Assembly (NCBI GenBank): GCA_030668825.1
Contig: DAOVET010000017.1
Location: 1 to 40,632 of the forward strand
Direction of reading: 5' to 3'
DNA: 40,632 nt
From: Candidatus Heimdallarchaeota archaeon
GTDB lineage: Archaea; Asgardarchaeota; Heimdallarchaeia; Heimdallarchaeales; Heimdallarchaeaceae
A program made the translations under genes and the position numbers. Shown in pieces: positions 12,773-40,096 of this stretch. Position 1 is the stretch's first letter; each line of letters opens with the position of its first letter. The notes below the pieces were generated by a model that saw only the letters and a list, made by a program, of their open reading frames with translations, was not told the DNA's origin and searched no databases.

Positions 12773-12808
12773 ATCTTACCACGTAAATTATTTATTGTGT
12801 GGTAAGAT
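12773..12808. repeat. Conserved palindromic element, copy 1 (ATCTTACCAC-N16-GTGGTAAGAT)
   Basis: Perfect 10 bp inverted arms with a 16 nt AT-rich spacer; identical arms at 36277-36312 and 38389-38424. Confidence 0.93.
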
Positions 12809-12892
12809 TCTCGAGAATTATGTTTTTACGTACTAGTGTGATTGAAAAAAATATTTAAAGAAAACATAGTGATGTTCTTCAGAGGATTAATT

Positions 12893-14221
12893 ATGAATTT
12901 AATGAATAACTTAGCTAATTCCGATCCAGAAGTTGCTGATATGCTTCTAAGAGAATTAAAGCGACAGGAAGAAGGCATAGAGCTTATTCCTTCTGAAAAT
13001 TACACTTATCGATCTGTTCTTCAGGCTATGGGGAGTGTTTTCACCAACAAATACTCCGAAGGTTACCCTAAGAAAAGGTACTATGGTGGAAATGAAATTG
13101 TAGATGAAGTTGAAATTCTAGCTATAGAACGCGCCATGGAGCTCTTTGGATGCGAACATGTTAATGTTCAACCGTATTCTGGCTCTCCAGCTAATCAAGC
13201 TGTTTTCTTTGCTTTACTAAATCTAAAAGATAAATTCCTAGGTTTCAGTCTTACATCAGGGGGTCATCTTACTCATGGAAGTCATGTAAACTTCTCTGGT
13301 AAGAATTATGCTTGTGTTAGCTATGATGTTGATAAAGAGACAGAAGTGCTAGATATGGCAGTTATCCATGAACTAGCTAGAAAAGAAAAACCCAAAATGA
13401 TTATATCTGGTTTAACCGCATATCCTAGAAAAATAGACTTTAAGGCTTTCCAAGAAATCGCAGAAGAAGTTGACGCATACCAACTTGCAGATATTTCTCA
13501 TATTGCAGGTTTAGTTGTAGGTGGAGTACATGAAAGCCCTGTTCCTTATGCTGATGTTGTAACAACTACAACTCACAAAAGTCTTAGAGGACCACGTGGT
13601 GCAATTATAATGTGTAAAACTGAAGATAGATTACATGATATTCACCACCCAAATAAAAAAACAAAAGCAGGAGAACCATTTAGTTTGGCTCGATTAATAG
13701 ACTCTGCAGTATTTCCTGGATTACAGGGGGGGCCCCATGATCATTCTACCGCAGCAAGAGCTGTTGCATTTGCTGAGGCTCTTAAACCTGAGTTTAAAGA
13801 TTATGCAAAGCAAATTGTCAATAATGCCAAAACATTGGCTGATGAATTAATGTCCCTTGGCATAAAACTTGTTACAAATGGAACCGACAATCATCTGATT
13901 CTCATTGATTTGCGACCTGAAGATTTAACCGGAAAAGGTGGTCCTATTCAAAATGCTCTGGATGAAGCAGGCATAACAGTGAATAAGAATACAGTTCCAT
14001 ATGAACCTTCAAGTCCCTTTCATCCTTCTGGACTTAGATTAGGTACACCAGCTATAGCTTCTAGAGGAATGAAAGAACCCGAAATGAAAGTAATTGCAGA
14101 AGGCATTGCTAAAGTTATAAAAGCCAAGGGTGATGCAGAAGTAAGTAAGCAAGTTCGAAAAGATATTCTCGAACTTACAAAGCAATTCCCACTATATCCT
14201 GGTATGTCGATATTGAAGTAA
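12893..14221 (+). CDS. glyA: Serine hydroxymethyltransferase (THF-type)
   Basis: LIPSENY, NKYSEGYPKKRYYGG, NVQPYSGSPAN, GGHLTHG, TTTTHKSLRGPRG and FPGLQGGP. ATG 12893 follows AGAGGA. Confidence 0.98.
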   Translation: MNLMNNLANSDPEVADMLLRELKRQEEGIELIPSENYTYRSVLQAMGSVFTNKYSEGYPKKRYYGGNEIVDEVEILAIERAMELFGCEHVNVQPYSGSPANQAVFFALLNLKDKFLGFSLTSGGHLTHGSHVNFSGKNYACVSYDVDKETEVLDMAVIHELARKEKPKMIISGLTAYPRKIDFKAFQEIAEEVDAYQLADISHIAGLVVGGVHESPVPYADVVTTTTHKSLRGPRGAIIMCKTEDRLHDIHHPNKKTKAGEPFSLARLIDSAVFPGLQGGPHDHSTAARAVAFAEALKPEFKDYAKQIVNNAKTLADELMSLGIKLVTNGTDNHLILIDLRPEDLTGKGGPIQNALDEAGITVNKNTVPYEPSSPFHPSGLRLGTPAIASRGMKEPEMKVIAEGIAKVIKAKGDAEVSKQVRKDILELTKQFPLYPGMSILK

Positions 14222-14248
14222 TTTCAAAAAAGGAATATCTTCCCTTTA

Positions 14249-14620
14249 CTATTTTTTATCTTTTTCTTCAAAAAGAATCTTTTCTGTTTGCTGCATTATT
14301 TTCAAAATAAGTTCATTTGATGCTTCTTTCAGACTTAGAGATAACAAAATCAATTTCTGAGTCCGAGAAGCAAACCTTTCTCCCAACATTCTTACAAAAT
14401 GTGTATCTGATGAACCAGTAACATAAAGAGTTGATGCTTGCATAATGTCAGTACCTGGTACTGATATTGCTAAGGTTCCAAGCCTTGGAGTTTCCTCGTA
14501 TATAAATATTGAAACTGCATTTTCCAAAAAAACTGCAGTTATTTGATATTGTTGCCCATCTATTTCAATCATGGTACAGAGTGTAGGCTTTGTCATTGTT
14601 ATAGGGTTGATTATCATCAT
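14249..14620 (-). CDS. PAC4/PSMG4-like proteasome assembly chaperone (putative)
   Basis: The pattern LGTLAISVP...ASTL...RMLGERFASRTQKLILLSLSL resembles PAC4 (LAVAM..ST...LAQRLARKT.KQVFVS); size fits. Based on recalled family pattern only. Confidence 0.6.
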   Translation of the reverse strand: MMIINPITMTKPTLCTMIEIDGQQYQITAVFLENAVSIFIYEETPRLGTLAISVPGTDIMQASTLYVTGSSDTHFVRMLGERFASRTQKLILLSLSLKEASNELILKIMQQTEKILFEEKDKK

Positions 14621-14638
14621 CTAAATAGTTTTCTTGAA

Positions 14639-15574
14639 CTAGATACAAGGGTTTTTGTCTCCTTTTGCTTCATAGTCTGCATAATACTCTCGAATACATT
14701 TCTGAAGATTAAGGTCATCTTTTGCTTGTTTGAGCTCAAAAGCTAAAAGCAGGTTGCTTGCTAGCATACAAACGGTAGCTGGTCCACTTCCACCCGGAAC
14801 AGGGGAAATATAAGCGACATCATCTTTTAAGTCGTCAAAGTCTACATCTCCCATCAGTTTGCCATCCTCGAAGTTAACGCCTACATCTATAAGCACAACA
14901 TCTTCTTTCACCATACCTTTTCGAATAAGATGGGGGCGACCTACAGCTGCAACAAGAATATCTGCCTCACGAGTATATTTCTCAAGTGGTTTTGATCTTG
15001 AATGACATATTGTTACAGTTGCATGTTCTCGTAAAAGAAGGTGAGCTACCGGTTTTCCAACTATCATACTTCTTCCAACAACTACAGCATGTTTTCCGTG
15101 TAATGGTATTTTATAGTGTTTCAATAACGCAAGAACACCTAAAGCTGTTGCAGGAATTAAATTAGGGCTAGATTTTGTCCAAGCATGAACATTGCCAGGA
15201 GATAAACCTTCAATGTCTTTATTTAGAGAGATACTTTCTATGACTTTATCTTCATCCATATGTTTAGGTAAAGGCAATTGAACAAGTATTCCATTGATAC
15301 TATCATCATTATTTTGTTTATCAATTATTTCTAAAAGTTCCTCCTCTGTTGTTTCTTCAGGAAGCTGAAGAACATCAGATTTAACACAAAGATTTGCAAA
15401 AAACTTCTCTCTTATTCTACGATAAGACTCTGAAGCAGGATCTTTACCCACAAGTATGGTAGATAATTTTGGTGTTTTATTGTATTTTCCTTTGATAACT
15501 TCACAACGAGGTTTGAGTACTTTATCTGTATACTCTTGTGAAAACTTTCTTCCATCAATTATCATGAATATCAC
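14639..15574 (-). CDS. folD: Bifunctional methylene-THF dehydrogenase/cyclohydrolase
   Basis: GILVQLPLP, KDIEG, VVGRSMIVGKP, ATVTICHS, IDVG and SPVPGG.GP. Confidence 0.96.
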   Translation of the reverse strand: MIFMIIDGRKFSQEYTDKVLKPRCEVIKGKYNKTPKLSTILVGKDPASESYRRIREKFFANLCVKSDVLQLPEETTEEELLEIIDKQNNDDSINGILVQLPLPKHMDEDKVIESISLNKDIEGLSPGNVHAWTKSSPNLIPATALGVLALLKHYKIPLHGKHAVVVGRSMIVGKPVAHLLLREHATVTICHSRSKPLEKYTREADILVAAVGRPHLIRKGMVKEDVVLIDVGVNFEDGKLMGDVDFDDLKDDVAYISPVPGGSGPATVCMLASNLLLAFELKQAKDDLNLQKCIREYYADYEAKGDKNPCI

Positions 15575-15791
15575 TATACTATATTTTCATGTTCTTGATT
15601 AATAGTTTTTTAAGCTCCTAATAAATTATGAGGATTTACAGATTTCCTTTTCAAATGACCAAACGCACCTAGAACAGAATCTTAGCTTTGTAACTGGTTT
15701 GGAATCAATAAGTTTTTATCAAATACTAAAAGCCTTGTTGTAAAGTCACGTGACTAGTGTAGAGATTCTACGTTTTTGGGAGAAAAAAATA

Positions 15792-19753
<3,962 letters not shown>

Positions 19754-19898
19754 TCAAACTTTATTGTATCTCTACTTTTTTCTTTTATTCAAGTTAAAAC
19801 AAGTTAAAAGTAAGTGAACAGAAAGTTTTTATTAAAATCTTATGAGGGAACTTTAACTAATGGTTAATGTTTGAACTATTAAGCAAAAATGTGATATT

Positions 19899-20342
19899 AT
19901 GACAGGATCCAAAAGTCCGAAAGGCGAATTCGCTGCAAGAAAACTGAAAAACAAAAGAAAAAAATTCAGATGGAAGGATATGCAGTACAAGCGAAGAATG
20001 TTAAGATTAGATAAAAAAACAGATCCACTTGAAGGTAGTCCAGCGGCAAGAGGCATTGTTGTTGAGAAATATGGTGTAGAAAGTAAACAACCAAACTCAG
20101 CTTTAAGAAAATGTGTAAGAGTTAGACTTGCTAAGAATGGAAAGCAAGTGGGTGCTTTTGTTCCTCATGACGGTGGGCTCTTATATGTAGATGAACATGA
20201 TGAAGTAATTGTTTGTAGTATTGGAGGAGCTCAGAAAGGAGCAATGGGAGACATTCCTGGTGTTAAATGGCAGGTTACTCATATTAATGGAGTTGCTATC
20301 AAGCAAATTGTTATTGGTAAGAAGCCCAAACCTCAAAGATAG
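19899..20342 (+). CDS. rps12: 30S ribosomal protein S12 (uS12)
   Basis: [13 protein letters not shown] and GDIPGV; archaeal-type N-terminus. Confidence 0.98.
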
Positions 20343-20349
20343 TTCTTTT

Positions 20350-20378
20350 GATGGATAAATCCATCTCTTCTACTTTTA
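20350..20378 (+). terminator. Short hairpin plus pyrimidine tract after rps12
   Basis: GATGGA-TAAA-TCCATC followed by TCTTCTACTTTT. Confidence 0.45.
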
Positions 20379-20516
20379 AATTAACTCATAACTGATTCTA
20401 TTAGTTTACATTTCTGTATAAGATAGTTTGAAAATGATGACCAAAATCCTTTAAATATATTATATCAATTGAGCTTGTAAGTAAAAAAGAAAAGAATTTT
20501 CAAAGGGGATCAAAAA

Positions 20517-20930
20517 ATGTCTGAATATGATATTACACCAGTTAGAGCTAGCCAAATTAAGGAAGGAAATCATATTATTCAAAACGATGAAGTTTTTCTC
20601 GTTCGTTCAATTGAAAAATCAAAAAGTGGCAAACATGGTCACACAAAATGTAGAATGAAAATAGAAAATATATTTACAGGAAGTAAAACAGAAATTTCTA
20701 TTCCAGGTGACTTAAAGCTACAATCTCCAATCATTGATAAAAGAAATGCTCAAGTCATATCCGTTGGTGGCGACAGTGCACAAATGATGGATCTTGAAAC
20801 TTATGAAACATTTGAAACTGCGCTACCAAGTGAAGAAGAGATGAAGGCTCAAATTAAGGAAGGAGCTGAAGTTGAATACTGGAAAGCAATTGGAAAAAGC
20901 AAAATCATGCGAATAAAGAGTTCTGGATAG
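20517..20930 (+). CDS. eif5a: Translation factor eIF5A/aIF5A
   Basis: SKSGKHGHTK hypusine loop; MDLETYETFE. Confidence 0.97.
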   Translation: MSEYDITPVRASQIKEGNHIIQNDEVFLVRSIEKSKSGKHGHTKCRMKIENIFTGSKTEISIPGDLKLQSPIIDKRNAQVISVGGDSAQMMDLETYETFETALPSEEEMKAQIKEGAEVEYWKAIGKSKIMRIKSSG

Positions 20931-21036
20931 AATATTATTATTTTTCCTAATCAATCCTTTTTTGAAAAACTTCAATTTCAGAATTCTCTTTCTAAACTAA
21001 AATTTATTAATTGTTACAAAGGATGATATAACATTC

Positions 21037-21113
21037 GGGCCGATAGATCAGCCTGGTAGATCGCTTCGTTCGCAATGAAGTAGCCCCGGGTTCAAATCCC
21101 GGTCGGTCCACCA
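21037..21113 (+). tRNA. tRNA-Ala(CGC)
   Basis: Acceptor GGGCCGA/TCGGTCC with G3:U70; anticodon arm CTTCG-TTCGCAA-TGAAG; T arm CCGGG-TTCAAAT-CCCGG; encoded CCA. Confidence 0.97.
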
Positions 21114-21117
21114 GCAA

Positions 21118-21139
21118 GTTTAGATTCTATAATCTAAAC
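21118..21139 (+). terminator. Perfect 9 bp hairpin just 3' of tRNA-Ala
   Basis: GTTTAGATT-CTAT-AATCTAAAC followed by a T-rich tract. Confidence 0.5.
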
Positions 21140-21275
21140 AGGTATTTTATGGTTTGAGTTAACCGAATATTGTTCCTAAAGGCGCCTAATCGAATTTTGT
21201 CGCTATTCTATTAATAAGCAAAAAGATTAAAAGGTTGTAATATTAATTAAGCAATAAGTATATTGAGGAATTCCT

Positions 21276-22652
21276 ATGACAAAGGTGCTGAATTTTACAC
21301 GTACAATTCGAGATCCTATATACGATGAAGTACGTATGACAGAAATCGAGAATAAAATTATAGACACTCCCATCTTTCAAAGATTAAGATGGATCAGCCA
21401 ATTATCAGGTGTTAGACAAGTTTATCCTTCAGCTATACATTCCAGATTTACCCATAGTGTTGGTGTCATGCACTTAGCAGGTAAATATGCTGAAGAAGTT
21501 TTTAGAGAAGATGACGATGTAGTGGAAAAAACTCAACTAGCACGTTTAGCAGGACTCTTACATGACATAGGTCATGGTCCGTTTAGCCACACATATGATG
21601 ATGTTGTCTTTAAAAGAGTATATCCAAACGCACCTCATGGACATGATGTCCATCGAGACAAAATGGTTAACTCTGAGTTTCTAAAGCCCCTTATTGAAGA
21701 ATTTATCGCCCCGGAAGAACTCATGAAAGTCTGGGATGGAGAAAGTTATATTATGCACCCCCTGATTCAAGGAGCACTTGGTGCAGATAGATTGGATTTT
21801 ATGCTCAGAGATTCTTTCTTTGCAGGTACATTGCATTTTGGTATAATAGCTGTTAATCGAATTATTAACAATACAACGATTCAAAAACACCTCAGTAAAG
21901 ATGCAATTCACTATAATTGGAAATGTTTAGATGACATCTATTCATCCCTCATTGGAAGATTTTTCGAATACAAAAATGTGTATTTCCACAAAACTGCTAG
22001 AGCAGCAGATATAACGATTCATGAAATGTTAAGAGAAGCTTGTGAACCATTGAATCTCATAGAACGAACAAATGATTTGGCGGCATATACCTACTTAAAC
22101 GAATATACTCTTGTTGGTGAAATATTCTCAAAAGATTCAGAGAAGCTTGCAAAAGCAAAATCACTTGTTAAAGATTTGTTTGATCGTAGGCTCTATAAAG
22201 CTGTTTGGGAAAAGATTATTGATGAATCAACAGCTGAGAATTTAGGTGTTAGTGTTGAAGATTTATGCAATATAACTTCTCAAGAATCATTCATCAAGAA
22301 AATCAAAAGCCACACAGAAGAAAAGAACATTTCTTTGGAATTTGATATGAAAATTGATTCTACTTACAAACTATCAACAATTAATGAACAAGAATTTCAA
22401 GCATCAAATATCTATATTTATGATCCTTATGAGAAAATTCGTCCTGGCTCAAAATCATTCACACTTAATGAGGCTTTGAACACAACCTCCTATATTACAA
22501 CTTTCGCTGGTCCAAGAGCCTATAGGTCTCTTTTTACACTTGTAAGAGTTTATGCTCACCCAAATGATGCTGAAACAATTAAGAAAATCTGGAAGAAAAT
22601 AAGACCTAAAACATTAGCTAAAGACAAAGATGTTTCATTGACTTCATATTAA
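21276..22652 (+). CDS. HD-domain phosphohydrolase, SAMHD1/dNTP triphosphohydrolase-like
   Basis: IRDPIY, FQRLRWISQL, HSRFTHSVG, LLHDIGHGPFSH, DRLDFMLRD and VYFHK. Confidence 0.92.
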   Translation: MTKVLNFTRTIRDPIYDEVRMTEIENKIIDTPIFQRLRWISQLSGVRQVYPSAIHSRFTHSVGVMHLAGKYAEEVFREDDDVVEKTQLARLAGLLHDIGHGPFSHTYDDVVFKRVYPNAPHGHDVHRDKMVNSEFLKPLIEEFIAPEELMKVWDGESYIMHPLIQGALGADRLDFMLRDSFFAGTLHFGIIAVNRIINNTTIQKHLSKDAIHYNWKCLDDIYSSLIGRFFEYKNVYFHKTARAADITIHEMLREACEPLNLIERTNDLAAYTYLNEYTLVGEIFSKDSEKLAKAKSLVKDLFDRRLYKAVWEKIIDESTAENLGVSVEDLCNITSQESFIKKIKSHTEEKNISLEFDMKIDSTYKLSTINEQEFQASNIYIYDPYEKIRPGSKSFTLNEALNTTSYITTFAGPRAYRSLFTLVRVYAHPNDAETIKKIWKKIRPKTLAKDKDVSLTSY

Positions 22653-22658
22653 CTAATT

Positions 22659-23051
22659 TCAATAACCAATTCCAATATTTTTTGTTGAGAACAGCTTTTG
22701 TGCATCTTTCACAATTTGCATTCCAGAATCATATTCCGCTAAAGCATTTTCTAGATGTTTTGTTACTTCATTTAGATCATTATTAGGTATTTTGTCCGAA
22801 TCTTCGGCTAATGCATACATTCCATCATTTGTAAATCTAACAGTTTTATTTTTACATAAATCTTGTATATGAGATGAAACTGTTTCAGAAATAACTGAAT
22901 ATCCGTTAAAGTACCAGTCTACTATTTTCAATGTCTCATCTTCATTAGATATCAGAAATAAGCCACTATGGATTGATTCTTCATGTTTCGGAAAAAACCT
23001 TTCTACAAAACTTGCTATATAAGAAGAAATCTTTTTGTTGGGGTCCCCCAT
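22659..23051 (-). CDS. Hypothetical protein
   Basis: 130 aa ORF filling the intergenic space, with AGGTT upstream; no recognisable motif. Confidence 0.65.
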   Translation of the reverse strand: MGDPNKKISSYIASFVERFFPKHEESIHSGLFLISNEDETLKIVDWYFNGYSVISETVSSHIQDLCKNKTVRFTNDGMYALAEDSDKIPNNDLNEVTKHLENALAEYDSGMQIVKDAQKLFSTKNIGIGY

Positions 23052-23212
23052 AATTATAACCTTTATCGTACAACTGAAAAGCTTCTGTAATACTGAAGCT
23101 TTTTATCGAATTCTTCAAACAAATTATGAAAAAAAATTATGTTTGTTTTCTAACATCATATCAGACCGTTTTGTCTTATGATTCTATGAAGTTAAAATCA
23201 TGAAATCTTGTA

Positions 23213-27422: not shown

Positions 27423-27435
27423 GAGAGTGGTTTGT

Positions 27436-28551: not shown

Positions 28552-28632
28552 GACTATTTATATGAAATAAAAGTTTGTGGAAATGAATCAATAACTTAGC
28601 TATATTACTGAAGCGCTGATTTTTCTAAATCG

Positions 28633-29376: not shown

Positions 29377-29568
29377 GTTTAGTTATCTCCTAATTATCTA
29401 ATTGGTATAGACTTTATAATGACTATTTTTGTACAGCAAGTTTGGTGTGCTTAAATAGATTTGTCTTCCTTTGATATTGTTTATCTGATATTTAGAATCA
29501 TATATTATACTAAAAACAAGCAAAATTAAACATATGATAAAAATAAAAAAATAAAAGAAAATAAGAGG

Positions 29569-30303
29569 TTATTTCTTACCTCTTCTTCTACCGCTTCTTT
29601 TTGCTGCTATCAAACCTACTTTTCTTCCAGGTTGTGCATGTCTTGAAACGGTTGTTGAACGTGGGGGACTTTGATGAGCACCACCACCATGTGGATGTGA
29701 AACTGCGTTCATTGCTACACCTCTTACTTTAGGATAGTAGTGGCCTTTAGCTTTTTTATGATGATGCATGTTTCCAGCTTTAACAAAAGGTTTCTCTGTT
29801 CTTCCTCCTCCAGCAACAATTCCAACTGTAGCTCTGCATCTTTGGGGAATTTCTTTCATTTCTCCACTTGGAAGCTGTACTGTAACTTTGCCTTTATCGT
29901 GTCCTAAAATAGTTGCATATCCACCGCTGGCTCTTATTAAACGCCCACCATCTCCTGGTGTTAATTCAATATTGAAAACTGGAGACCCATCAGGAATAGC
30001 TTGTAAAGGCATTGTGTTACCTAGTTGAACTGCTGCACCTGTTCCATATTCGATTTTTTGTCCTACTCGAATGCCTTCAGAAGGCAGTATGATCTTCTTG
30101 AGTCCATCCTCAAAAAGTACTTTAGCTACAGGAGCCCCTCTACCAGGATCATGAACAATATCTTTAACAAATCCAGTAATTTTTCCTGAATATTCGATTT
30201 TTGCAACTTTTCTGTATTTTACACTACCTTTTTTCTTATGAGAAGCTGCTCTGAACTGTGATGTTCCTCTTCCACGTCTCTGAACTAGTATTTTCTTACC
30301 CAT
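29569..30303 (-). CDS. rpl2: 50S ribosomal protein L2
   Basis: QRRGRG, HDPGRGAP, VRGVAMNAVSHPHGGG. Confidence 0.99.
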   Translation of the reverse strand: MGKKILVQRRGRGTSQFRAASHKKKGSVKYRKVAKIEYSGKITGFVKDIVHDPGRGAPVAKVLFEDGLKKIILPSEGIRVGQKIEYGTGAAVQLGNTMPLQAIPDGSPVFNIELTPGDGGRLIRASGGYATILGHDKGKVTVQLPSGEMKEIPQRCRATVGIVAGGGRTEKPFVKAGNMHHHKKAKGHYYPKVRGVAMNAVSHPHGGGAHQSPPRSTTVSRHAQPGRKVGLIAAKRSGRRRGKK

Positions 30304-30315
30304 TCAAATCACCTT

Positions 30316-30576
30316 TTAGAATAATCCCATTCGTGATGCAATATCAGTAGCATCATCAAATTCACTTAGCCTTACGTATGCTTTCTTTGTTCCTTTGGGA
30401 GTTATTAATGTATTAACCTTATCTACCTTAACGTTGTATAGTATTTCAATTGCTTCTTTAATTTGCTTCTTCGTAGCTCTGAGATCAACCCATAGAACCA
30501 ATTTATTTTCTTTTTCTATTAGTTCAAAGTCCTTTTCTGAGATAAGTGGTTTCTTTATAATTTTGTACGGATCCAT
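30316..30576 (-). CDS. rpl23: 50S ribosomal protein L23
   Basis: [24 protein letters not shown]. Confidence 0.98.
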
Positions 30577-30582
30577 TTTTCA

Positions 30583-31368
30583 TCACCCAAAACGTTCTCC
30601 TAGAGATTTTATCGCATCCTCAGTCCAAATAGTAAGTCTTCCAGGATAAGTTCCTGGTGCTAGCATCTCTGTAGATAATTCCCTTACCGATATAATTGTG
30701 GTTCCTAGAATATTTCTACCTGCTTTAGATAATGGACATTCTCTATCGCCAACAACAATTAAAGGACCGACAGGAACTTTATATTTCCTTCCTCTTCCTT
30801 TACCTTTACCAGGGCGAACTTTCTTACCTATTTTAATTCTCATGAGTTCTAAAGACAAACCCAGATTTCCCAAGAATCTAACAACATCTTGTGTTTTTTC
30901 TATAACCTCTGCTTTCGATTCTACAATAATTGGAAATTCCATTTTATCTTCAAATCTGTGTCCTCTATCACCCACTGCGGTTTTTGATGCCGTATAAGCT
31001 ATAGCTGATTTAAGGGCAAGTAAGTGTTCTTTCCTATTTACTTTCTCTATAATCTTTTTCTCCGCTGTTGGAGGATGTGCTTTGTGGCCTCCTCTGGCTT
31101 GAGGAACAAATGCTGTTCTTTGAGCACTATGTGTTCTAGAACCTTTAATACGTGGTACACGAGCTGCCCCTCTTCCAGGACCCCAATTTTCAACAGCAAC
31201 CATACGCCCAGCTAGAGGGCTAACACCTTTAGGTTGTTTCTTCCAACTTTGCTCGGCTAAAACAGCACGTTTGATAACATCTGGACGAAATATTGTGGTA
31301 AAAACTTCAGGGAGTTCTACTTTTTCACTCATTTTCTGTCCTTTGATTGAATATTTTGATACATTCAT
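30583..31368 (-). CDS. rpl4: 50S ribosomal protein L4
   Basis: RPDVIKRA, WGPGRGAARVPR, LAPGTYPGRLTIWT. Confidence 0.98.
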   Translation of the reverse strand: MNVSKYSIKGQKMSEKVELPEVFTTIFRPDVIKRAVLAEQSWKKQPKGVSPLAGRMVAVENWGPGRGAARVPRIKGSRTHSAQRTAFVPQARGGHKAHPPTAEKKIIEKVNRKEHLLALKSAIAYTASKTAVGDRGHRFEDKMEFPIIVESKAEVIEKTQDVVRFLGNLGLSLELMRIKIGKKVRPGKGKGRGRKYKVPVGPLIVVGDRECPLSKAGRNILGTTIISVRELSTEMLAPGTYPGRLTIWTEDAIKSLGERFG

Positions 31369-31384
31369 TTTTATCTCCTCACAC

Positions 31385-32386
31385 CTAACCTTGTTGACTC
31401 CTTGTTGAGATATGCAGAATTTGTGGTTCTTTAATTGGTTGTGGAGCTTTTCTCATTGGTCCTCTAAGCATTACTGTTCGCTTTTTAGGTCCTGGTATTG
31501 ATCCTTTCACTAAAACATAGTTGTTTTTTACCACACCATATTTAACAAATCCACCTTTAGGTACTATTTGTAATCCATCAGATCCTATCTGCATTATTCG
31601 TTTGTTGTATTCAGTCCTCACATGGAACCCCATTTGTCCATATCTTGGAATAGTCCACATTGTTCTGGATGGTGTCCATGGCCCTATTGATCCAACACCA
31701 CGTTTGGTACCTTTGGACTTGTGTTGAAGTATTTTAACTCCATGTCTCTTTACTGGACCTTGGAAACCCTTACCTTTGGTTACACCAATTGAATCAACAA
31801 ATTCTCCTGCCTTAAACACATCCCTGATTAACAATTCTTTTCCAAGAAGAGAAAGACCGTATTCAAAACCTTCCTTTATATCGCTGCATCCAATTTTGAC
31901 TTCAGCTATTTGAGGTGTTTTCATTCCTATTCCAGTCAAGTAAGGTTGTGTATGAACAATTGCTCTTAACTCAACAATTTTTTCTAGTTTATCTTCCAAC
32001 TTCTTCTTGGCCTTTTCAAAATCATATTCTTTTGGAGTCTTAAGTCTACGTTTTAGCTCTTCCTTGGTTTCAGTTGCTAAAAGATCAGCAGCGATCTGAA
32101 GACCATACGCTGATTTTTCGTAACCCCGTAATCCAAAAATTACGATAGGAGGTGTTTCGATGCATGTTATAGCTGCAGTTACTTCTCTATTCGCCAAGTG
32201 ACTCCTTGGTCGATCTTCTATATATACGCAATGCGTCATCCCTGCTTTGATTCCGAGAAATCCCAATAGTTTGGGAGCACCCTCGTATTCTTGCCATGCG
32301 CGAGGTGCAGGGATAATTCTTCTTGCTCTTACCCTTCGATATCCTAGTGATGATCGATGGGGAGCACTTACCCTTCGATGCCCCAT
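31385..32386 (-). CDS. rpl3: 50S ribosomal protein L3
   Basis: GIKAGMTH, TKGKGFQGPVKR, GQMGFHVRTEYNK, GSIPG. ATG 32386 preferred. Confidence 0.98.
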   Translation of the reverse strand: MGHRRVSAPHRSSLGYRRVRARRIIPAPRAWQEYEGAPKLLGFLGIKAGMTHCVYIEDRPRSHLANREVTAAITCIETPPIVIFGLRGYEKSAYGLQIAADLLATETKEELKRRLKTPKEYDFEKAKKKLEDKLEKIVELRAIVHTQPYLTGIGMKTPQIAEVKIGCSDIKEGFEYGLSLLGKELLIRDVFKAGEFVDSIGVTKGKGFQGPVKRHGVKILQHKSKGTKRGVGSIGPWTPSRTMWTIPRYGQMGFHVRTEYNKRIMQIGSDGLQIVPKGGFVKYGVVKNNYVLVKGSIPGPKKRTVMLRGPMRKAPQPIKEPQILHISTRSQQG

Positions 32387-32546
32387 ATTTATCACTTTAT
32401 ATTGCTAATTTTAATTTATTAACGTCTTATTACTTATTCTTGCAGAACCTATGAATTGCGTTCTGACGTCGTACTCCGACTTCATTAGCATCATATAAAT
32501 ATGTCGTTACGAAAGAAATTGAATGAAATAGTCATTTCAGTATAAA

Positions 32547-33584
32547 CTACAAATCTTCAACAGTTATATGAAAACAATCTGATTTTCTTTCAATGTTAGT
32601 TTTTCTTTTTATAAACTTCTGAGTCAAGTCTATGTTGGTTTTAGTGTGGCTTGAGATGGTAGGTGTAGATATTTCTGATTTTCCTTCTGTTAATAACAGC
32701 GGTACAATCAACTGATCTGCAGCATATTCATCTACAGCTGCAGAACCATGAGAATTTCTTTCCCAAATCTTTGCACACAATCCTGCAACCTGTTCAGCAG
32801 TTATTCTTCTTTCACCTGGAATAAAACACCCAATTCTACTACCTGAAGAATAGATTCCAATAACTGTCAATCCTGAACCAGGATTTAGAGATTTAACATA
32901 GTTGATATGTCTATTAACATCAACATTTAGTTTTATTTTTTTTGTGAAAGCATCTGCTTGTCTTTCAGCAACATGTCTCCCCATTAATGATTGTGAAGCT
33001 ATTGAAAAAATTTCTACTTTTAGTAATTCCCCTTTTTCTGTTAAGTTTAGTGGGGAAAGCATATCATGGCCTTTAAACTGAAAAACGCATTTTGCTCCTC
33101 CTCTAGGATAAAAGCCATAGTGCATTGTACTTGTTTCTATTTTCTTATTCATTAATCCCATTAATTCATGAGTAATGTGTTGAATATATTCCACTGAAGG
33201 GGCCCATTTACCATGAGTGGCACCACCATCTATAGTTAATTCCAAATCTCGTTTTTGAGAAAAGGCATAGAATAAGACTGCTTGTGCAACTAAACCAATG
33301 CTTCCAGCTGTTCCAACTTTTACAAATGCTTTATCTGACTTTGCATTTTTCTTTGTTAAAATTAATTCTTCGTCTCCAATATTTGAATCAACCGAAATAA
33401 ATCCAGAAAATTGTTTAATTGCATTAATTGCTTCTATATGTTGAGCTCTTAAACCAGGATTTGATCTATTAGAACGAATGTTGAAAAGATTCAAATCAGT
33501 ATCTGTAGCAGCTGCTAAAGCTGAAGATATTCGTACTATAGAACCTCCACCTTCTCCAATGGAACAATCTAAATTGATAGTCAT
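32547..33584 (-). CDS. rtcA: RNA 3'-terminal phosphate cyclase
   Basis: GEGGG, IRSNRSNPGLRAQH, GFYPRGG, ADQL and the catalytic His in SSHTKTN. Confidence 0.95.
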   Translation of the reverse strand: MTINLDCSIGEGGGSIVRISSALAAATDTDLNLFNIRSNRSNPGLRAQHIEAINAIKQFSGFISVDSNIGDEELILTKKNAKSDKAFVKVGTAGSIGLVAQAVLFYAFSQKRDLELTIDGGATHGKWAPSVEYIQHITHELMGLMNKKIETSTMHYGFYPRGGAKCVFQFKGHDMLSPLNLTEKGELLKVEIFSIASQSLMGRHVAERQADAFTKKIKLNVDVNRHINYVKSLNPGSGLTVIGIYSSGSRIGCFIPGERRITAEQVAGLCAKIWERNSHGSAAVDEYAADQLIVPLLLTEGKSEISTPTISSHTKTNIDLTQKFIKRKTNIERKSDCFHITVEDL

Positions 33585-33616
33585 CTTAAATTGTATAAGA
33601 AAGGAAAGAAAAAAAT

Positions 33617-34021
33617 CTAACGGTAGGATTTTTGGAATCTTGATCGAGAACTTCTTCCACCAAAATGTTTGGGTTCAGTTCTTCTTGGATCACCTGAGAC
33701 GATTGTTTTATCATAAACAGTAAATTTTTCCTTCATTGTTAAATCATCATAATATTCTATCAATCCTCTTGCAATAGCAGTTCGGATTGCTTCAGCTTGA
33801 CCCATAAATCCTCCTCCCCTTACATTGACTCTTATGTCAATTGATTCTCGTACTTCCTCTCCTGCAATAATGAAAATCTCGCTAATTTTTATTTTACTTA
33901 ATTCATTTGGTAAGACTTCTAAAGGCACTCCATTAATTCTAATTCTGCCTTTGCCTTCTTTTATAGTAGCTCGAGCAATAGCTGTTTTTCTTTTTCCTGA
34001 AGATACAATTACTTTACCCAT
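33617..34021 (-). CDS. rps9: 30S ribosomal protein S9
   Basis: GKRKTAIARA, GGGFMGQAEA, C-terminal QKSYR; ATG 34021 follows AGGTGA. Confidence 0.98.
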   Translation of the reverse strand: MGKVIVSSGKRKTAIARATIKEGKGRIRINGVPLEVLPNELSKIKISEIFIIAGEEVRESIDIRVNVRGGGFMGQAEAIRTAIARGLIEYYDDLTMKEKFTVYDKTIVSGDPRRTEPKHFGGRSSRSRFQKSYR

Positions 34022-34034
34022 ATTCATCACCTAT

Positions 34035-34505
34035 TTATTCATTCCACCCAAATTCTTTACATAATTCACCAATGGTTATTTTCTTGCATGTTAGTTTGCT
34101 TGCATCTGCAAACTTAGGTTTAATCATTTCACTATCAGTAAACTCTTCTGGAACTCCAACGTATGTTAGTAATCTATGATATGCTTGCCTTCCCCTACTT
34201 TTCTTCCAAGGCAACATACCTCTAACTGTTCTCCTAACCAAACGATCTGGTCTTTTTGGGTGAAATGGACCACGTCTAGGATTAGTATGTGTATGTATCT
34301 GTTGCATATCTCTATATTCTCTTAAAATTGAATGCTTTTTACCAGAAATAACAGCTTTTTCACAATTTAGTATATTTACAGTATAACCTTCCAGCAAATA
34401 TTTGGCTACCTCTGTAGATAATCTTCCTAAAATTGCATTATCTGCATCAATATTAATTTTGGTAACTGAAATTTGAGTTCCAGTTGTTGTTGTGTTTTTT
34501 GCCAT
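34035..34505 (-). CDS. rpl13: 50S ribosomal protein L13
   Basis: ILGRL, RGPFHPKRPD, RTVRGMLP. Confidence 0.98.
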   Translation of the reverse strand: MAKNTTTTGTQISVTKINIDADNAILGRLSTEVAKYLLEGYTVNILNCEKAVISGKKHSILREYRDMQQIHTHTNPRRGPFHPKRPDRLVRRTVRGMLPWKKSRGRQAYHRLLTYVGVPEEFTDSEMIKPKFADASKLTCKKITIGELCKEFGWNE

Positions 34506-34517
34506 TTTTCACACCAA

Positions 34518-34883
34518 TTATACTATAATCTTAATTTTACTAACCTCTTGTTTTGATTCCAATAACTCATCAATGGTTATGTGTTTGCTTTTACTGGCTT
34601 TAATTTTCTCTTTTGCTCCCTCTGAGAATTTCAGAGCCGCAATTGTAACTTGATGGTTTAAGTATCCGGCACTTAGAACAGAACCGGGAACAACGATTAT
34701 ATCATTTTCTTTAGAATAACGACTGATCTTACTGAGATTGACTGTAGCTCTCTTTCTTCGAGGTCTTTCTATTTTGTCTGCTACAGTTTTCCATAATGCT
34801 GCTTGTGTTTCTGCAGTTTTCTTTTTTAATTTATGAATAAGTTCAAGTACATTTGGATCAGTAGTTCCTGTTCTTCTAGGCAT
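34518..34883 (-). CDS. rpl18e: 50S ribosomal protein L18e
   Basis: WKTVADKIERPRR, VNLSKISR, VVPGSVL, FSEGAKEKI. Confidence 0.97.
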   Translation of the reverse strand: MPRRTGTTDPNVLELIHKLKKKTAETQAALWKTVADKIERPRRKRATVNLSKISRYSKENDIIVVPGSVLSAGYLNHQVTIAALKFSEGAKEKIKASKSKHITIDELLESKQEVSKIKIIV

Positions 34884-34894
34884 TTTAGTTCACT

Positions 34895-35725
34895 TTATGA
34901 TTCTTTTTCCTCTGCCAATGTTGATTCAAGAGTCTTTTTGAATTCGTCGATTTTTGCGAGAATTAACTCACCAGATTTTGTTAATGTTGTTGAAGGATCT
35001 AAACCTCCATTAGTTTCAAAGGAAAAAATGACTTTTGTAGAATCTTTGCCGATTGTTATTGCATTTGGTTCGCAAACTTCAAGACAGTAATCACACAAAG
35101 TGCAATTTAAAGGATTAGCAATTTGGACTTTATCACCAGTCTTTTGGTAAACTCCCCTATAACATGCGTCTATACATGCTAAACAATTAGTACATTTTTC
35201 CTTATCTATAGTTGGGATTGGAAATGCTTGGTAACCCATGGCAGAGACAGGTTGCCATTTTGCATGTTCTTTTCCTTTGCCAAGTTGTGCCATACACTCT
35301 AGTTCCAGAGCTTGATTTGGTCCCAATTTTACAATTGGAATCACAGAACTTATAGGTTCAACTCCAGCCTGAGTTGAAATTAAATCCGAACTATAAACAA
35401 CAGTAGATGTTTGAGCATCTGTTTCTTTTGAGAGTGTTAATGTCACAGTGCATAAATTACAACCAATCCCTCCACAATCACATTCATCTCTGAAGTTTAA
35501 CTCCAAAGCATCAATGTCGAATTTTAAAGGAATTAATCCCAGTCTATGAGCTATGAACTCATCAAAAAGGGGTGATGTGTTTTTCAAAACATATACATCT
35601 TCAATTGTCAATGATGGCACTTCAGCTAATGCTGTTCTTCTAATTGTGTTAGCAAACGCTAATGTCACATCTGACAATATGAATTTTATTGAATTAGGAA
35701 ATAACTCTATAAGTTCTATATCCAT
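34895..35725 (-). CDS. rpo3: DNA-directed RNA polymerase subunit Rpo3 (D) with ferredoxin-like insert
   Basis: ANTIRR, NTSPLFDEFIAHRLGLIPL, GKGKEHAKWQP and two CxxCxxCxxxC motifs. ATG 35725 preferred. Confidence 0.97.
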   Translation of the reverse strand: MDIELIELFPNSIKFILSDVTLAFANTIRRTALAEVPSLTIEDVYVLKNTSPLFDEFIAHRLGLIPLKFDIDALELNFRDECDCGGIGCNLCTVTLTLSKETDAQTSTVVYSSDLISTQAGVEPISSVIPIVKLGPNQALELECMAQLGKGKEHAKWQPVSAMGYQAFPIPTIDKEKCTNCLACIDACYRGVYQKTGDKVQIANPLNCTLCDYCLEVCEPNAITIGKDSTKVIFSFETNGGLDPSTTLTKSGELILAKIDEFKKTLESTLAEEKES

Positions 35726-35895
35726 AGACGCACCCGGCAAAGGATTCTATATCCGACCCAATGATGATACTAAAAAAGGTTTTCCATCTTCAAGTTATTT
35801 AAACATCAACCAAAAGCATGTGAAAAAGTACTCAAGATGTTTAAAATCAGTTTTGTGGAGTTTAAATATTGTCCTTTATACAAATAATGAGAATT

Positions 35896-36072
35896 ATGTT
35901 AATGCTATTACAAGGGATAAAAGGTCTGATTTTCAAGAAGAAAAGAGGATCGCCTATATTAGAAGAAATTCTTTTGATAGGTGTCGCCATATTGATTTTT
36001 GCCATAATCTTTGGAATCATTTTCAGCTTGATTGACTGGTCAACAACCTCTTTTGATGATCTGTTTGGTTAA
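35896..36072 (+). CDS. Short type IV pilin-like protein (class III signal peptide)
   Basis: KKKRG/SPILEEILLIGVAILIFAIIFGII: basic residues, Gly at -1, Glu at +5, then a hydrophobic helix. TTTAAATA box at 35861-35868. Confidence 0.75.
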   Translation: MLMLLQGIKGLIFKKKRGSPILEEILLIGVAILIFAIIFGIIFSLIDWSTTSFDDLFG

Positions 36073-36081
36073 AATAGAAGC

Positions 36082-36166
36082 TGGTGCGGAGAGGGAGATT
36101 CGAACTCCCGGACCACTAAGGACTAGATCCTCATTCTAGCGCCTTTGACCACTCGGCAATCTCCGC
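36082..36166 (-). tRNA. tRNA-Leu(GAG)
   Basis: Minus strand reads GCGGAGA...CTAGA-ATGAGGA-TCTAG, long variable arm, T arm, TCTCCGC-A-CCA; 85 nt. Confidence 0.96.
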
Positions 36167-36276
36167 AAAGGTATGTATTAGACCGAGCCTACTGATTTTT
36201 AACTTTATCGGCATATGATTTTTAGTGTCCCAATCCCTCTTTGAAACAAAACTACAAGCAAAACTACGCTGGGAAA

Positions 36277-36312
36277 ATCTTACCACGTAAAATTAAATTT
36301 CTGTGGTAAGAT
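36277..36312. repeat. Conserved palindromic element, copy 2
   Basis: ATCTTACCAC-GTAAAATTAAATTTCT-GTGGTAAGAT. Confidence 0.93.
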
Positions 36313-36374
36313 AAATTGCGCTTACTGGGAGCACCTGAAAAAAACTCTGAAAGAGATAGGGGTAATTTGATGAT

Positions 36375-37949
36375 TTACAGCATCTTTCTAATTGTATCGT
36401 TTCCTTGCATTGTTAGATAATCTGACAATTTATACTCCAGTCTACTAAATCCATACTGTCTGCATTTCTTTATAGCCATGTATTGTAGAGCTGGTCCCAA
36501 TGAATCTCCATTCTTGTAGGCCCCTACTTGGATGAAAGCTTCCATGAAAACGCGCATTTCAAGCACTTCTATCTTATGAAGTTGATTTTCATACTTTCTT
36601 AGTAGTGGGGAGATTTCTGCAAACCGGTTGATTTTATAATATTCTTGAGCCGCAAGTAAGTCAGCAAAAGCTTTCTCGGTAAATGTCATTCTGTCTTCTA
36701 CAGGTCTTCTTTTTAGTTTAGAAGTATAATGCATAACTTCATTTTCATCAATAGTTGTTGTTTTTTCGATAAGGAAATTTATGATGTGTTCTACTCTTTT
36801 TGTGCTCGGATTATTTAAGTTTCTTATTTCAATCAGCTGCTCTTTGGTAAGGTTAGCATTCAAAAGAAATTCACAAAAGATTATTGCATTACTTTGAAAT
36901 CTTCTAACATTATCAAATATAGTTTGTACCAACACTTGAAAATCTTCGATTCGAAAGTTTTGTATTCTTGAAAAAATATAGAATTTTGTTAGATTAAAAA
37001 TGTGTTTCATTTGTTCTTTACTGAAAGAATCTAGATTTCTTGTAGCAATTCCTTCTTCAATTAATTCATCTACTTCTTTCATTTGTTTGTGAGCAGATTC
37101 AAGTTCTCCTTGAAGTGCATAAGTTGAAGCTAAGTAAGAGAGGGCTGTTATGTAGTAACCTGAGTAAATACTCTTATTGTATATGGGTCTCAAAATAGCT
37201 TGAGACTCTAGTAAATGCTTTTTTGCTTCATCGAGGTTTAAATTAAGCTCGTGGCCAATACCTATGAAGTAATGAATCATTGACTGGATTTCTTTAGGCG
37301 CTTTAAGCAAAAGTTCTCTTCCACTGAGAATTTTTCGAATTAATTTCATCATTCTTTCTTTATTTTGTGTTTGCATATAAATTATGATTAAAATACCTAA
37401 AGCCATTGCAAAACCGTGATAATAATAATTCAAATGGAAATATTCAGCAGAATTTTCCAAAATACTCACAACACTAAAATCTCTACAGGATAACCACTTA
37501 CTTACAGCATAGGAGTAATTACACATGTTGTAAGCATATGAATCTGCTTGTATTGAATTTCTAAGAAGTTCTACAGCTTGGCTAAACTCATAGTTGCTTC
37601 TTTCTCTATTTCCTTTCAGCAATTCAATGTATCCTTTGATTTGAAAAGACAGTGCTAAACCTTCGATGTAGTTAATTTTTGTTGCAATTTGACTCATTTC
37701 TTCTAAAAGCTCTTCTACTAATGGTAAATTTTCTTTAAAATGGTACAGTTGTTTGATTTTGAGTTCATATAGATCCACTACGAGTTTTAAGTCAGATGAA
37801 GATTTACTATACTCTAAAACACCATCTACAAGTTCTAGAACATCTTTTGATTTTTCATTAGCACATAGAATGCGTAATTCATTGATTATTAAGGGTAAAT
37901 TAGTTTCTTTCAGTTTTTCTCCAAACAATTTTCTTAATTCTTCTTTCAA
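36375..37949 (-). CDS. All-helical TPR-like (alpha-solenoid) protein of unknown function
   Basis: TPR-like helix pairs, e.g. GLALSFQIKGYIELLKGNRERSNYEFSQAVEL, IHYFIGIGHELNLNLDEAKKHLLESQAI and ALSYLASTYALQGELESAHKQMKEV. TTG start with GAGTGA SD and a TTTATAAA box upstream. Confidence 0.75.
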   Translation of the reverse strand: MKEELRKLFGEKLKETNLPLIINELRILCANEKSKDVLELVDGVLEYSKSSSDLKLVVDLYELKIKQLYHFKENLPLVEELLEEMSQIATKINYIEGLALSFQIKGYIELLKGNRERSNYEFSQAVELLRNSIQADSYAYNMCNYSYAVSKWLSCRDFSVVSILENSAEYFHLNYYYHGFAMALGILIIIYMQTQNKERMMKLIRKILSGRELLLKAPKEIQSMIHYFIGIGHELNLNLDEAKKHLLESQAILRPIYNKSIYSGYYITALSYLASTYALQGELESAHKQMKEVDELIEEGIATRNLDSFSKEQMKHIFNLTKFYIFSRIQNFRIEDFQVLVQTIFDNVRRFQSNAIIFCEFLLNANLTKEQLIEIRNLNNPSTKRVEHIINFLIEKTTTIDENEVMHYTSKLKRRPVEDRMTFTEKAFADLLAAQEYYKINRFAEISPLLRKYENQLHKIEVLEMRVFMEAFIQVGAYKNGDSLGPALQYMAIKKCRQYGFSRLEYKLSDYLTMQGNDTIRKML

Positions 37950-38049
37950 TATTACTCACTCGCACTCTAATCTTTAAATTCATTTATAAACCGTGATAAT
38001 ACTTAAAAGGAAAATCTAAGAAAAAAGAATAAGGAAAAAGGAGAGGATG

Positions 38050-38124
38050 TTAGTTTGGCATCCATGCAGGAGGTAGTATTGAATCATCTCCTTCGTCAGG
38101 GTCGTATTTTTGTTCGTACATCAT
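38050..38124 (-). CDS. Micro-peptide A, 24 aa: MMYEQKYDPDEGDDSILPPAWMPN
   Basis: ATG..TAA with SD-like GAGTTGA, a TTTTAATA box at 38167-38174 and a T-rich tract downstream. Paralog at 38518-38589 shows synonymous and conservative changes. Confidence 0.8.
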   Translation of the reverse strand: MMYEQKYDPDEGDDSILPPAWMPN

Positions 38125-38220
38125 GTTTCAACTCTTGGAAAGGTTACTCTAATAGTGGAATGAAACTATTAAAACACCCAAAAGAAAAATGTGACAATAA
38201 AAGAGAAAGAAAAAGGAAGT

Positions 38221-38292
38221 CTAACATCTAAAGCTATCAAGCAGATGGCAATATTCCATCGTCTCTTCAATAAAATCATATTGACTTTTCAT
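38221..38292 (-). pseudogene. Micro-peptide B: MKSQYDFIEETMEYCHLLDSFRC as read; apparently a 1-nt-deletion relative of A/C (shifted frame DDGILPSA*)
   Basis: Perfect SD AGGTGA 6 nt before the ATG. GAA G-A GAC GAT GGA ATA TTG CCA TCT GCT TGA aligns to A's GAA GGA GAT GAT TCA ATA CTA CCT CCT GCA TGG. Confidence 0.6.
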
Positions 38293-38388
38293 TGTTAATC
38301 ACCTAGAATTCTTGTTTAAGGATGACAAACAGGGGAATGAATTACATACTTTTCTAGATTTAAATCGCCAACGAAAATGAGCTGGAAA

Positions 38389-38424
38389 ATCTTACCACGT
38401 AAATTTAATTTTGTGTGGTAAGAT
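38389..38424. repeat. Conserved palindromic element, copy 3
   Basis: ATCTTACCAC-GTAAATTTAATTTTGT-GTGGTAAGAT, with outer arms AAAATGA (38374-38380) and TCATTTT (38433-38439). Confidence 0.93.
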
Positions 38425-40086: not shown

Positions 40087-40096
40087 GGGGAAAACA

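Follow-up and report, generated by a model that had tools for sequence, protein, structure and literature searches.

A window of 40,632 nucleotides (nt), which is the whole stretch of contig DAOVET010000017.1 analyzed here from a Candidatus Heimdallarchaeota archaeon, contains three exact intergenic copies of a palindromic element that recurs in related genomes. With a probability of roughly 0.4, we interpret this element as a double-stranded DNA site for a dedicated protein, bound independently of orientation. It would be a strictly intergenic, roughly dyad-symmetric unit of ~85 bp, specific to Asgard archaea of the Heimdallarchaeaceae type, with the palindrome as its core. For each of two DNA-binding domains, one invariant 10-bp arm would provide the half-site; the AT-rich, fixed-length spacer would span the gap between the bound domains, and the A-rich/T-rich flanks would belong to the footprint. 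The bound complex would be indifferent to the direction of neighboring genes; it might, for instance, organize the chromosome or mark a boundary, as opposed to acting at a promoter operator. The best candidate for the binder is a clade-specific protein of 148 amino acids (aa), in which a C-terminal winged helix is predicted to be joined by a flexible linker to a small, beta-rich N-terminal domain.

A duplex site best explains the combination of invariant half-sites, lineage-specific spacing, symmetric footprint, indifference to orientation, and arrays beside the winged-helix gene. Given the invariance of the arms, the spacing, and the gene context, the element fits badly with a terminator, a 3'-untranslated-region element, or a promoter operator.

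The element in the window

The window holds three copies of ATCTTACCAC-N16-GTGGTAAGAT, with 0 mismatches even at a tolerance of three, and the palindrome occurred in 0 of 100 dinucleotide-preserving shuffles of the window. Copy 1 (ATCTTACCAC / GTAAATTATTTATTGT / GTGGTAAGAT; 12773-12808, + strand) is located in the spacer between a ubiD-like open reading frame (ORF; 11410-12732, +) and glyA, 40 nt past the stop codon of the former. Copy 2 (loop GTAAAATTAAATTTCT; 36277-36312, +) is situated between a 524-aa tetratricopeptide repeat (TPR)-like ORF (36375-37949, -) and tRNA-Leu(gag) (36082-36166, -), 62 nt past the stop of the ORF and 111 nt from the tRNA gene. Copy 3 (loop GTAAATTTAATTTTGT; 38389-38424, +) lies between two small peptide genes, 93 nt past the stop of a 23-aa peptide ORF (MMYEQKYDPEDGDESITPPLWLP; 38518-38589, -) and 438 nt upstream of cdc6.

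An earlier note on this DNA had reported copies with identical arms at these positions, 40-95 bp downstream of stop codons. It also described an AT-rich 16-nt spacer that begins with GTAAA on the + strand and a GGAA or GGAAA directly 5' of each copy. All of these features were reproduced for the three window copies, which are mutually unrelated beyond ~40 bp. The note further described the spacing as fixed and the polarity as common to all copies; as detailed below, these two properties hold in the window and not as general rules.

Conservation of arms and spacer

A collection of species-representative genomes was scanned once for two perfect arms separated by any gap of 10-24 nt. The genome of the window itself is outside this collection. 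The scan yielded 113 stretches in 111 loci (individual loci are denoted by L numbers). Nine of these loci are bacterial, with gaps of 11-22 nt that are mostly G+C-rich, and are treated as chance matches. All non-bacterial matches stem from metagenome-assembled genomes (MAGs) labelled Heimdallarchaeota, ‘archaeon’, ‘Promethearchaeati’ or, in one case, ‘Thorarchaeota’, and their gaps are AT-rich and 15-17 nt long throughout. The conserved copies in relatives for which the earlier note proposed a search are therefore present: when overlaps are removed, 110 further distinct exact sites are found in 29 assemblies, or species, of Heimdallarchaeota, with 1-11 sites per assembly. Two complete Heimdallarchaeum genomes (L025, L027) have one exact copy each, at the locus of the 148-aa gene. 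The archaeal DNA fetched around the sites amounts to ~1.07 Mb with some overlap between loci, and was selected for carrying the element. Thirty-one loci are short stretches of ~340-1250 bp, the MAGs are incomplete, the ORF calls are crude, and the site counts include orthologues and are not independent.

Copy 1 has orthologues at the same place in 14 other genomes, and 20 of the 20 arm columns are invariant. Across the 15 species, the arms in the ubiD/glyA spacer are unchanged while the upstream flank is unalignable. The locus of copy 2 likewise carries a copy in eight other loci. Copy 3 has no counterpart in the orthologous spacers of L001, L033, L038, and L067, where Cdc6 is 99% identical; when aligned with these four relatives, the spacer is too rearranged for boundaries to be drawn. 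There were 0 empty sites among the fetched loci, which had been chosen for the presence of the element.

The fetched DNA contains 125 core palindromes of the form CTTACCAC-N-GTGGTAAG, and perfect 10-bp arms are present in 113 of them. There are 11 near-copies with one or two mismatches, and in nine of these the changes are confined to the outer two pairs. A compensated change of an outer pair was seen in a single case (L072, position 250), and none was seen in the inner stem pairs. As there are almost no matched changes between the arms, it is the sequence that is conserved and not merely the fold. Half-sites rarely occur on their own: 249 of 263 half-site 8-mers lie within palindromes, and of the 14 that stand alone, three belong to degenerate palindromes; base composition gives a chance estimate of ~20 solo 8-mers.

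The spacer measures 16 nt in 99 of the 125 palindromes, 15 nt in 20, 17 nt in three, and 19 nt in three; the fixed 16-nt spacing seen in the window thus does not extend to all sites. Spacer length is instead homogeneous within each genome and dependent on lineage (115/125, whereas 5000 permutations averaged 101 and did not exceed 108). For example, all six sites of CAZJUB01 have 15-nt spacers, including its TPR/tRNA-Leu site, the orthologues of which have 16 nt elsewhere. Such lineage-specific uniformity is the pattern predicted by co-evolution with one trans-acting factor. The loop centres are free A/T and unrelated between copies of one genome, and only the arms and loop ends are held in common.

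Flanks and footprint

The flanks of the element have a shared composition. When 168 non-redundant flanks are read outward from the arms, T predominates at positions +1 to +3 (56-60% of sites) and makes up 42-48% at +10 to +21. The proportion of A drops to 9-13% at +18 to +23, where G+C reaches 40-50%, and is 33-44% past +27. This profile is the same towards incoming and outgoing neighbor genes, and differs little between the two sides of oriented sites. A longer site-specific stem was considered and dropped, given that flanks pair no better within a site than across sites (complementarity of 12.6 and 12.3, respectively; p = 0.10). As the flanks share composition without pairing, their symmetry is one of composition and does not reflect a longer stem. 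The nearest neighboring stop codon is at least 29 nt from the element. The unit is likely to span ~85 bp with both flanks included. The probable full footprint of copy 1, comprising the arms and ~25 bp per side, covers 12748-12833 without strand assignment; by analogy, those of copies 2 and 3 would cover 36252-36337 and 38364-38449. Separately, a second short palindrome, AGACCCCGGGTCT, was observed within 100 bp of several elements (twice at L010 ~1100-1150, and at L013 ~9960-9990 and L097 ~360-380).

Gene context and orientation

Both neighbors could be called for 77 sites, which were grouped by flanking protein families into 47 locus types. These comprise 14 convergent, 13 divergent, and 20 tandem types, with window copy 3, whose peptide genes are below the 25-aa limit of the caller, misclassed as divergent. 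The ratio of 14:13:20 approximates the 1:1:2 expected from blind placement in spacers. No site falls within an ORF matching Pfam, and three of 113 fall inside ORFs of 70-96 aa from the crude caller. A stop codon 29-139 nt before the arm was found for 62 of 74 non-redundant incoming genes. Six of 14 divergent sites have no incoming ORF of at least 25 aa with coding-like codon usage.

Sites were oriented by their loop ends, the strand on which the loop runs from GT to GT being called the GT strand. Across 113 sites, 46 are oriented on the + strand and 43 on the - strand, and 24 are unassignable. The earlier note had argued for a DNA-level site from polarity that is independent of transcription; this argument rested on three copies that point alike by chance. 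Nor do the copies orient with transcription; such an orientation, coinciding with RNA 3' ends, is what the note would have taken to indicate a simple terminator. Of the tandem types, 10 have the GT strand running with the genes and nine against them, with one tie. Orientation also flips among orthologues: nine are co-directional and three opposite in the ubiD/glyA spacer, and one is co-directional and four opposite at the TPR/rpoD locus. In one pair of loci (L038 10001-10036 and L001 7672-7707, corresponding to window 36277-36312), the flanks are kept and the 16-nt spacer is inverted, from which it appears that the loop can flip in place between the inverted arms. Pairs and triplets of elements 46-106 bp apart are often oppositely oriented, and three elements are found within ~140 bp in L054, L072, and L087. 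A replichore-like polarity was dropped, since a single contig can hold both orientations (L039/L043, L036, L102, L029).

No common theme was found among the neighboring genes, which encode UbiD, SHMT, M42 peptidase, dCMP deaminase, cupin, NosD-like, and DJ-1 proteins, as well as aminotransferase, phosphatase, PAS kinase, and restriction-modification methylase. A link with tRNA genes was rejected, as it is confined to the tRNA-Leu(gag) locus (nine of 113 sites). Likewise, no fixed distance to TATA-like boxes was detected in 29 outgoing flanks of different gene families, and a promoter inside or beside the element was dropped as a general rule due to the variable distance. The exception is glyA, where a constant 33 nt separates the element from a conserved box, even in L066 with its different upstream gene. 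In the window, this box (TTGAAAAAAATATTTAAAGAAAAC; 12842-12865, +) lies 33 nt 3' of copy 1. It is nearly invariant in the 15 orthologous spacers, the remainder of which has diverged, and is probably the glyA promoter, resembling a transcription factor B recognition element (BRE) and TATA box.

Several conserved element loci cluster in the chromosome together with orc1/cdc6 genes. The cdc6 gene of the window type is 0.5-2.6 kb from the TPR/tRNA-Leu copy. A second Orc1/Cdc6 paralogue, ~26% identical to that of the window, is 2.8-5.1 kb from the 148-aa locus (L019 8994-10653, L025 3802-5500; also L005, L029, L050, L055, L056, L064, and L071) and follows a 104-aa winged-helix gene and a DUF6788 gene. 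On DXJF01000011, the winged-helix, dCMP-deaminase/cupin, and TPR loci are found at 58.6, 84.3, and 129.2 kb. For JAUVXV010000016, the positions are 3.4 kb (deaminase/cupin), 43.2 kb (tRNA-Leu/rpoD), and 66.8 kb (ubiD/glyA), and in the window the copies at the latter two loci are 23.5 kb apart. A region of ~95 kb therefore holds four conserved element loci and two orc1/cdc6 genes. As these positions are orthologous, the clustering counts as one evolutionary observation. Proximity to a replication origin is suggested by the orc1/cdc6 genes alone.

Gene order is altered exactly at the element in several genomes. In L066 (9917-10141), another gene is found upstream of glyA. In L037 (9942-10174), the gene for ribosomal protein L2 adjoins the element in place of tRNA-Leu/rpoD, and the cdc6 block is on opposite sides of the element in L025 and L019. 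Two further loci contain local arrays: three copies in L061 (10001-11812) and two in L008 (8930-9629) have near-identical loops and 30-nt flanks, and punctuate tandem small coiled-coil ORFs by OLD-type/AAA ATPase genes, suggesting that they were duplicated locally and recently in a variable, defense-like region. The sole transposon-related neighbor seen was a TnpB (OrfB_IS605 / Cas12f-like TNB) gene in L039 (5095-6405, -), 378 bp from the element.

A candidate binding protein

The 148-aa ORF (P0001-P0003) is located outside the window. In 20 of 21 loci, it is followed by 1-3 elements 31-98 nt past the last aligned codon. The protein has no Pfam match above threshold, with weak matches to MarR and Penicillinase_R at E-values of 0.006-0.09. 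Every named close homologue comes from Heimdallarchaeota, Heimdallarchaeaceae, or Heimdallarchaeum, and there are six weak matches, one of them from Bathyarchaeota. A profile search retrieved 253 representatives at E <= 1e-3; among 65 aligned members, Penicillinase_R was found in 18, Cdc6_C in three, and MCM_C in two.

A structure model based on the 65-member alignment (predicted local distance difference test, pLDDT, of 81.5) has an N-terminal beta-beta-alpha domain and a C-terminal winged helix, joined by a linker modeled with low confidence. An earlier model from 12 sequences (pLDDT 55) was not used. The nearest solved folds in Foldseek are MarR, ZitR, OhrR, RosR, Sso10a, F93, and TubR. Among orthologues of 60-100% identity, there is no variation in the predicted recognition helix and wing. 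A homodimer prediction scored 0.00 against a mark of 0.42 and weighs neither way. Overall, the anatomy, conservation, distribution, and gene neighborhood of the element are observed directly, whereas we infer that the 148-aa protein, the best candidate, is its binder, that duplex DNA is the form recognized, and that the resulting complex would act as proposed above.

The element and the 148-aa protein might even constitute a previously undescribed centromere-like, loading, or boundary system of Heimdallarchaeaceae, though we regard this extension as speculative and on balance unlikely. In this scenario, the complex would be nucleated at a few intergenic sites in the ~95-kb region, and the G.T asymmetry of the loops described below would reflect an extruded or unwound form. 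If correct, this would be a chromosome-organizing system with an invariant 10-16-10 site. Asgard archaea are the closest prokaryotic relatives of eukaryotes and, to our knowledge, almost nothing is known of their cis-acting DNA signals. A 20-base signal that is letter-perfect in at least 29 species, together with a candidate reader protein, would provide an experimental handle on chromosome organization, partitioning, or gene insulation.

Alternative explanations

Several points weigh against a duplex site, the foremost being the asymmetry of the loop ends. When read outward from the arms, these are GT at one end and AC at the other in 50 of 113 sites (22.2 expected), and the combinations GT+GT and AC+AC, either of which would complete a true palindrome, are found at 0 sites (9.9 and 12.4 expected). 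The loop ends are symmetric in only five sites compared to 27.2 expected, and the observed value was not reached in any of 10000 permutations. On one strand, the sequence GTAAA TTWWTT TTTGT would lengthen the stem by G.T, T.G, and three A-T pairs, leaving a T-rich hexaloop. The T-rich loop centre is on this wobble strand in 65 of 89 sites, and the wobble strand agrees weakly with the flanking RAAA (53 of 85). An origin of GT..GT by deamination was dropped by reasoning, since G is otherwise nearly absent from the loops. Such anti-symmetry is predicted by a single-stranded hairpin but not by a symmetric dimer on duplex DNA, and hints that the element at some stage adopts a hairpin in single-stranded DNA or RNA. 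In addition, the half-site centres are 26 bp apart, or ~2.5 helical turns, a spacing that a compact dimer would not readily accommodate. Twenty specified bases are beyond the reach of point mutation, and some copying process must therefore once have spread the copies. The counts are inflated by orthology, and the collection scan covered perfect arms only. With respect to the candidate binder, the Foldseek matches are all weak (best E = 4.7e-3), L049 has the 148-aa gene with no element behind it, and the adjacency of gene and element could be a matter of conserved synteny.

An RNA-level hairpin, serving as a bidirectional terminator, 3'-end stabilizer, processing signal, or dock for an RNA-binding protein, is an unlikely explanation that nevertheless has several observations in its favor. 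In RNA, the 10-bp stem would be extended by G.U, U.G, and three A-U pairs around a U-rich hexaloop, and the G.U ends go with the U-rich centre. Folding is strong on both strands (-14.6 to -21.2 kcal/mol, z of -4.1 to -6.7). All window copies follow a stop codon, most incoming genes stop 29-139 nt before an arm, and runs of at least five T residues occur within 30 nt downstream of 37 of 70 sites when the GT strand is read and of 24 of 70 when the opposite strand is read; most of these runs are 10-20 nt away from the stem. However, such a role is difficult to reconcile with the divergent locus types, the divergent sites that have no candidate incoming ORF, the even split of the tandem types, and the flips between orthologues. 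The stem is invariant with hardly any compensation, whereas the loop, the usual point of contact between RNA and protein, is variable. Arrays of three hairpins within 140 bp and the lack of a matching Rfam family also count against it, as does the fact that archaeal termination is generally ascribed to oligo-T tracts with no specific hairpin. The preference of the earlier note for a DNA-level site over a terminator is supported in part, by the conserved copies in relatives, the lack of transcription polarity, the near absence of compensatory change in the arms, and the constrained spacing; the form recognized may be the duplex or a single strand.

Rather unlikely, in our assessment, is a domesticated hairpin repeat similar to repetitive extragenic palindromes (REPs), bacterial interspersed mosaic elements (BIMEs), or miniature inverted-repeat transposable elements, once spread by a transposase as single-stranded DNA and now retained. 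This would explain the strictly extragenic location with spacer types at random, the opposed pairs and triplets, the 1-11 copies per assembly, the lineage-specific copy 3, the duplicates in L061 and L008, and the TnpB gene near one L039 copy. The intrinsic strand polarity would suit a DNA hairpin with G.T mismatches, and the spread of 20 exact bases requires a copying mechanism. Set against this, the copy number is far below that of REPs, which are usually species-specific, and the arms are invariant over 29 species. Copies in one genome have unrelated loop centres, which means that no burst occurred recently, and decayed copies and solo half-sites are almost absent. No Y1 (RAYT) transposase was found among ~150 neighbor proteins (81 + 48 + 20) scanned against Pfam, and no empty site was available to define insertion ends. 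Least probable is a role in replication or recombination, be it as inverted Orc1/Cdc6 half-sites, similar to a mini origin recognition box (mini-ORB), or as the site of a site-specific recombinase. The two most conserved loci are close to different orc1/cdc6 genes, copy 3 is in the spacer upstream of cdc6, and gene order often shifts at the element (L066, L037, L025 vs L019). The inverted arms, the fixed asymmetric spacer, and the loop inversion between L038 and L001 also point in this direction. Yet copy 3 is missing from the spacer of close relatives, other copies are several genes away from cdc6, and neither a repeated ORB-like array nor a G-string was observed. The scanned neighbor proteins contained no recombinase, the spacers differ between copies, and the cores of known tyrosine or serine recombinase sites have spacers shorter than 16 bp. 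Of the candidates put forward in the earlier note, a site for a dimeric protein remains the best and a REP-like element applies in part; a recombinase core fits poorly, given the length and variability of the spacer.

Comparison with known systems

The proposed duplex site shares features with several known systems. Like parS, the bacterial centromere-like site bound by ParB, the element is a short, clade-constant palindrome with a few to a dozen copies that is blind to direction, tends to cluster regionally, and has a copy beside the gene of its presumed binder. In contrast, parS is a contiguous 16-bp sequence and often intragenic, whereas the element has a 10-16-10 structure and is always intergenic. 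No ParB or ParA domains were found among the neighbor proteins, and the adjacent winged-helix gene has no partner ATPase. The Ter/replication terminator protein system of Bacillus subtilis also has a small winged-helix gene beside a presumed pair of sites, with further copies dispersed. However, Ter sites are polar and located in the terminus region, whereas the element is near orc1/cdc6 and has no consistent polarity; there is no similarity in sequence or architecture. As for the operators of archaeal MarR, TrmB, and ArsR proteins, inverted half-sites would presumably be read by a winged helix. Known archaeal operators overlap the BRE, TATA box, or start and have short spacers, unlike the element with its centres 26 bp apart and its 14 convergent types.

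In common with REPs and BIMEs, the element is an extragenic imperfect palindrome with strand-specific mismatches, is found in opposed pairs, and occurs in convergent and other spacers. REPs and BIMEs number tens to hundreds of copies, compared to 1-11 for the element, which has unrelated loops and the same arms in 29 species. The flanking tetranucleotide also differs, being RAAA in the element and GTAG in REPs. With intrinsic terminators, the element shares a stable hairpin, A residues 5' and T residues 3', and a usual position 29-139 nt after a stop codon. Terminator stems, though, are not conserved in sequence, whereas that of the element is invariant, is found in divergent spacers, and occurs up to three times in a row. 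ORBs and mini-ORBs would be expected in several copies by orc1/cdc6, where only the single copy 3 is found and is missing in close relatives. The element also does not resemble an attC array, as its arrays are of mixed orientation and no integrase was found among the neighbor proteins.

Database searches gave no match to a described element. In Rfam, only the four tRNAs of the window reach the gathering score, and the match at the sites was mir-299, with 21.9 bits compared to 67 required (E = 3.5). A sequence search of the PDB returned no meaningful match, and a full-text literature search, which covered articles without their supplements, found no paper on the motif. The arm GTGGTAAGAT (e.g. 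12799-12808) contains GGTAAGA, similar to the eukaryotic 5' splice site, and CTTACC is similar to the 5' end of U1 snRNA. We take this likeness to be most probably a coincidence, since the elements are intergenic.

Other features of the window and its relatives

The window is archaeal, with a G+C content of ~34%, and encodes rpoB, rpoA'/A'', ribosomal proteins, orc1/cdc6, a ubiD-like gene, glyA, and four tRNAs. Copy 1 is flanked upstream by the UbiD-family decarboxylase ORF (Pfam UbiD, UbiD_C, UbiD_N) and downstream by glyA, encoding serine hydroxymethyltransferase (12894-14221, +; Pfam SHMT, E = 8e-158), with an ATG at 12894. The 524-aa ORF next to copy 2, referred to as a TPR gene in the earlier note, has no Pfam match; its orthologues adjoin the element in L001, L004, L033, L037, and L038. 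The Orc1/Cdc6 gene (38863-40086, +; Pfam Cdc6_lid, Cdc6_C, AAA) is followed by an ArsR-type gene (40073-40396).

The small peptide gene beside copy 3 and its paralogue (38050-38124, -) belong to a multi-copy family of tiny acidic peptides (MMYEQKYDPDEGDD..PPAW.P, 22-25 aa), whose genes have a conserved leader of ~85-130 nt upstream. In the fetched loci, this family has 35 matches at the DNA level, and 2-3 copies are present between the TPR-like gene and cdc6. In addition to the two window genes, members were seen in L001, L007, L033, L038, L067, and L069. An association between the palindrome and this family was considered and dropped, with distances ranging from 82 nt to 9.9 kb.

The element is also found at the ends of contigs. 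In ~10 loci (L023, L035, L047, L065, L072, L075, L077, L083, L101, L104), it lies within roughly 300 bp of a contig end, which looks to be above chance for contigs of 3-150 kb. The hairpin may cause drops in coverage or breaks in assembly. The element would remain a useful marker of the clade, and a likely cause of such breaks, even were it to turn out to be a domesticated repeat.

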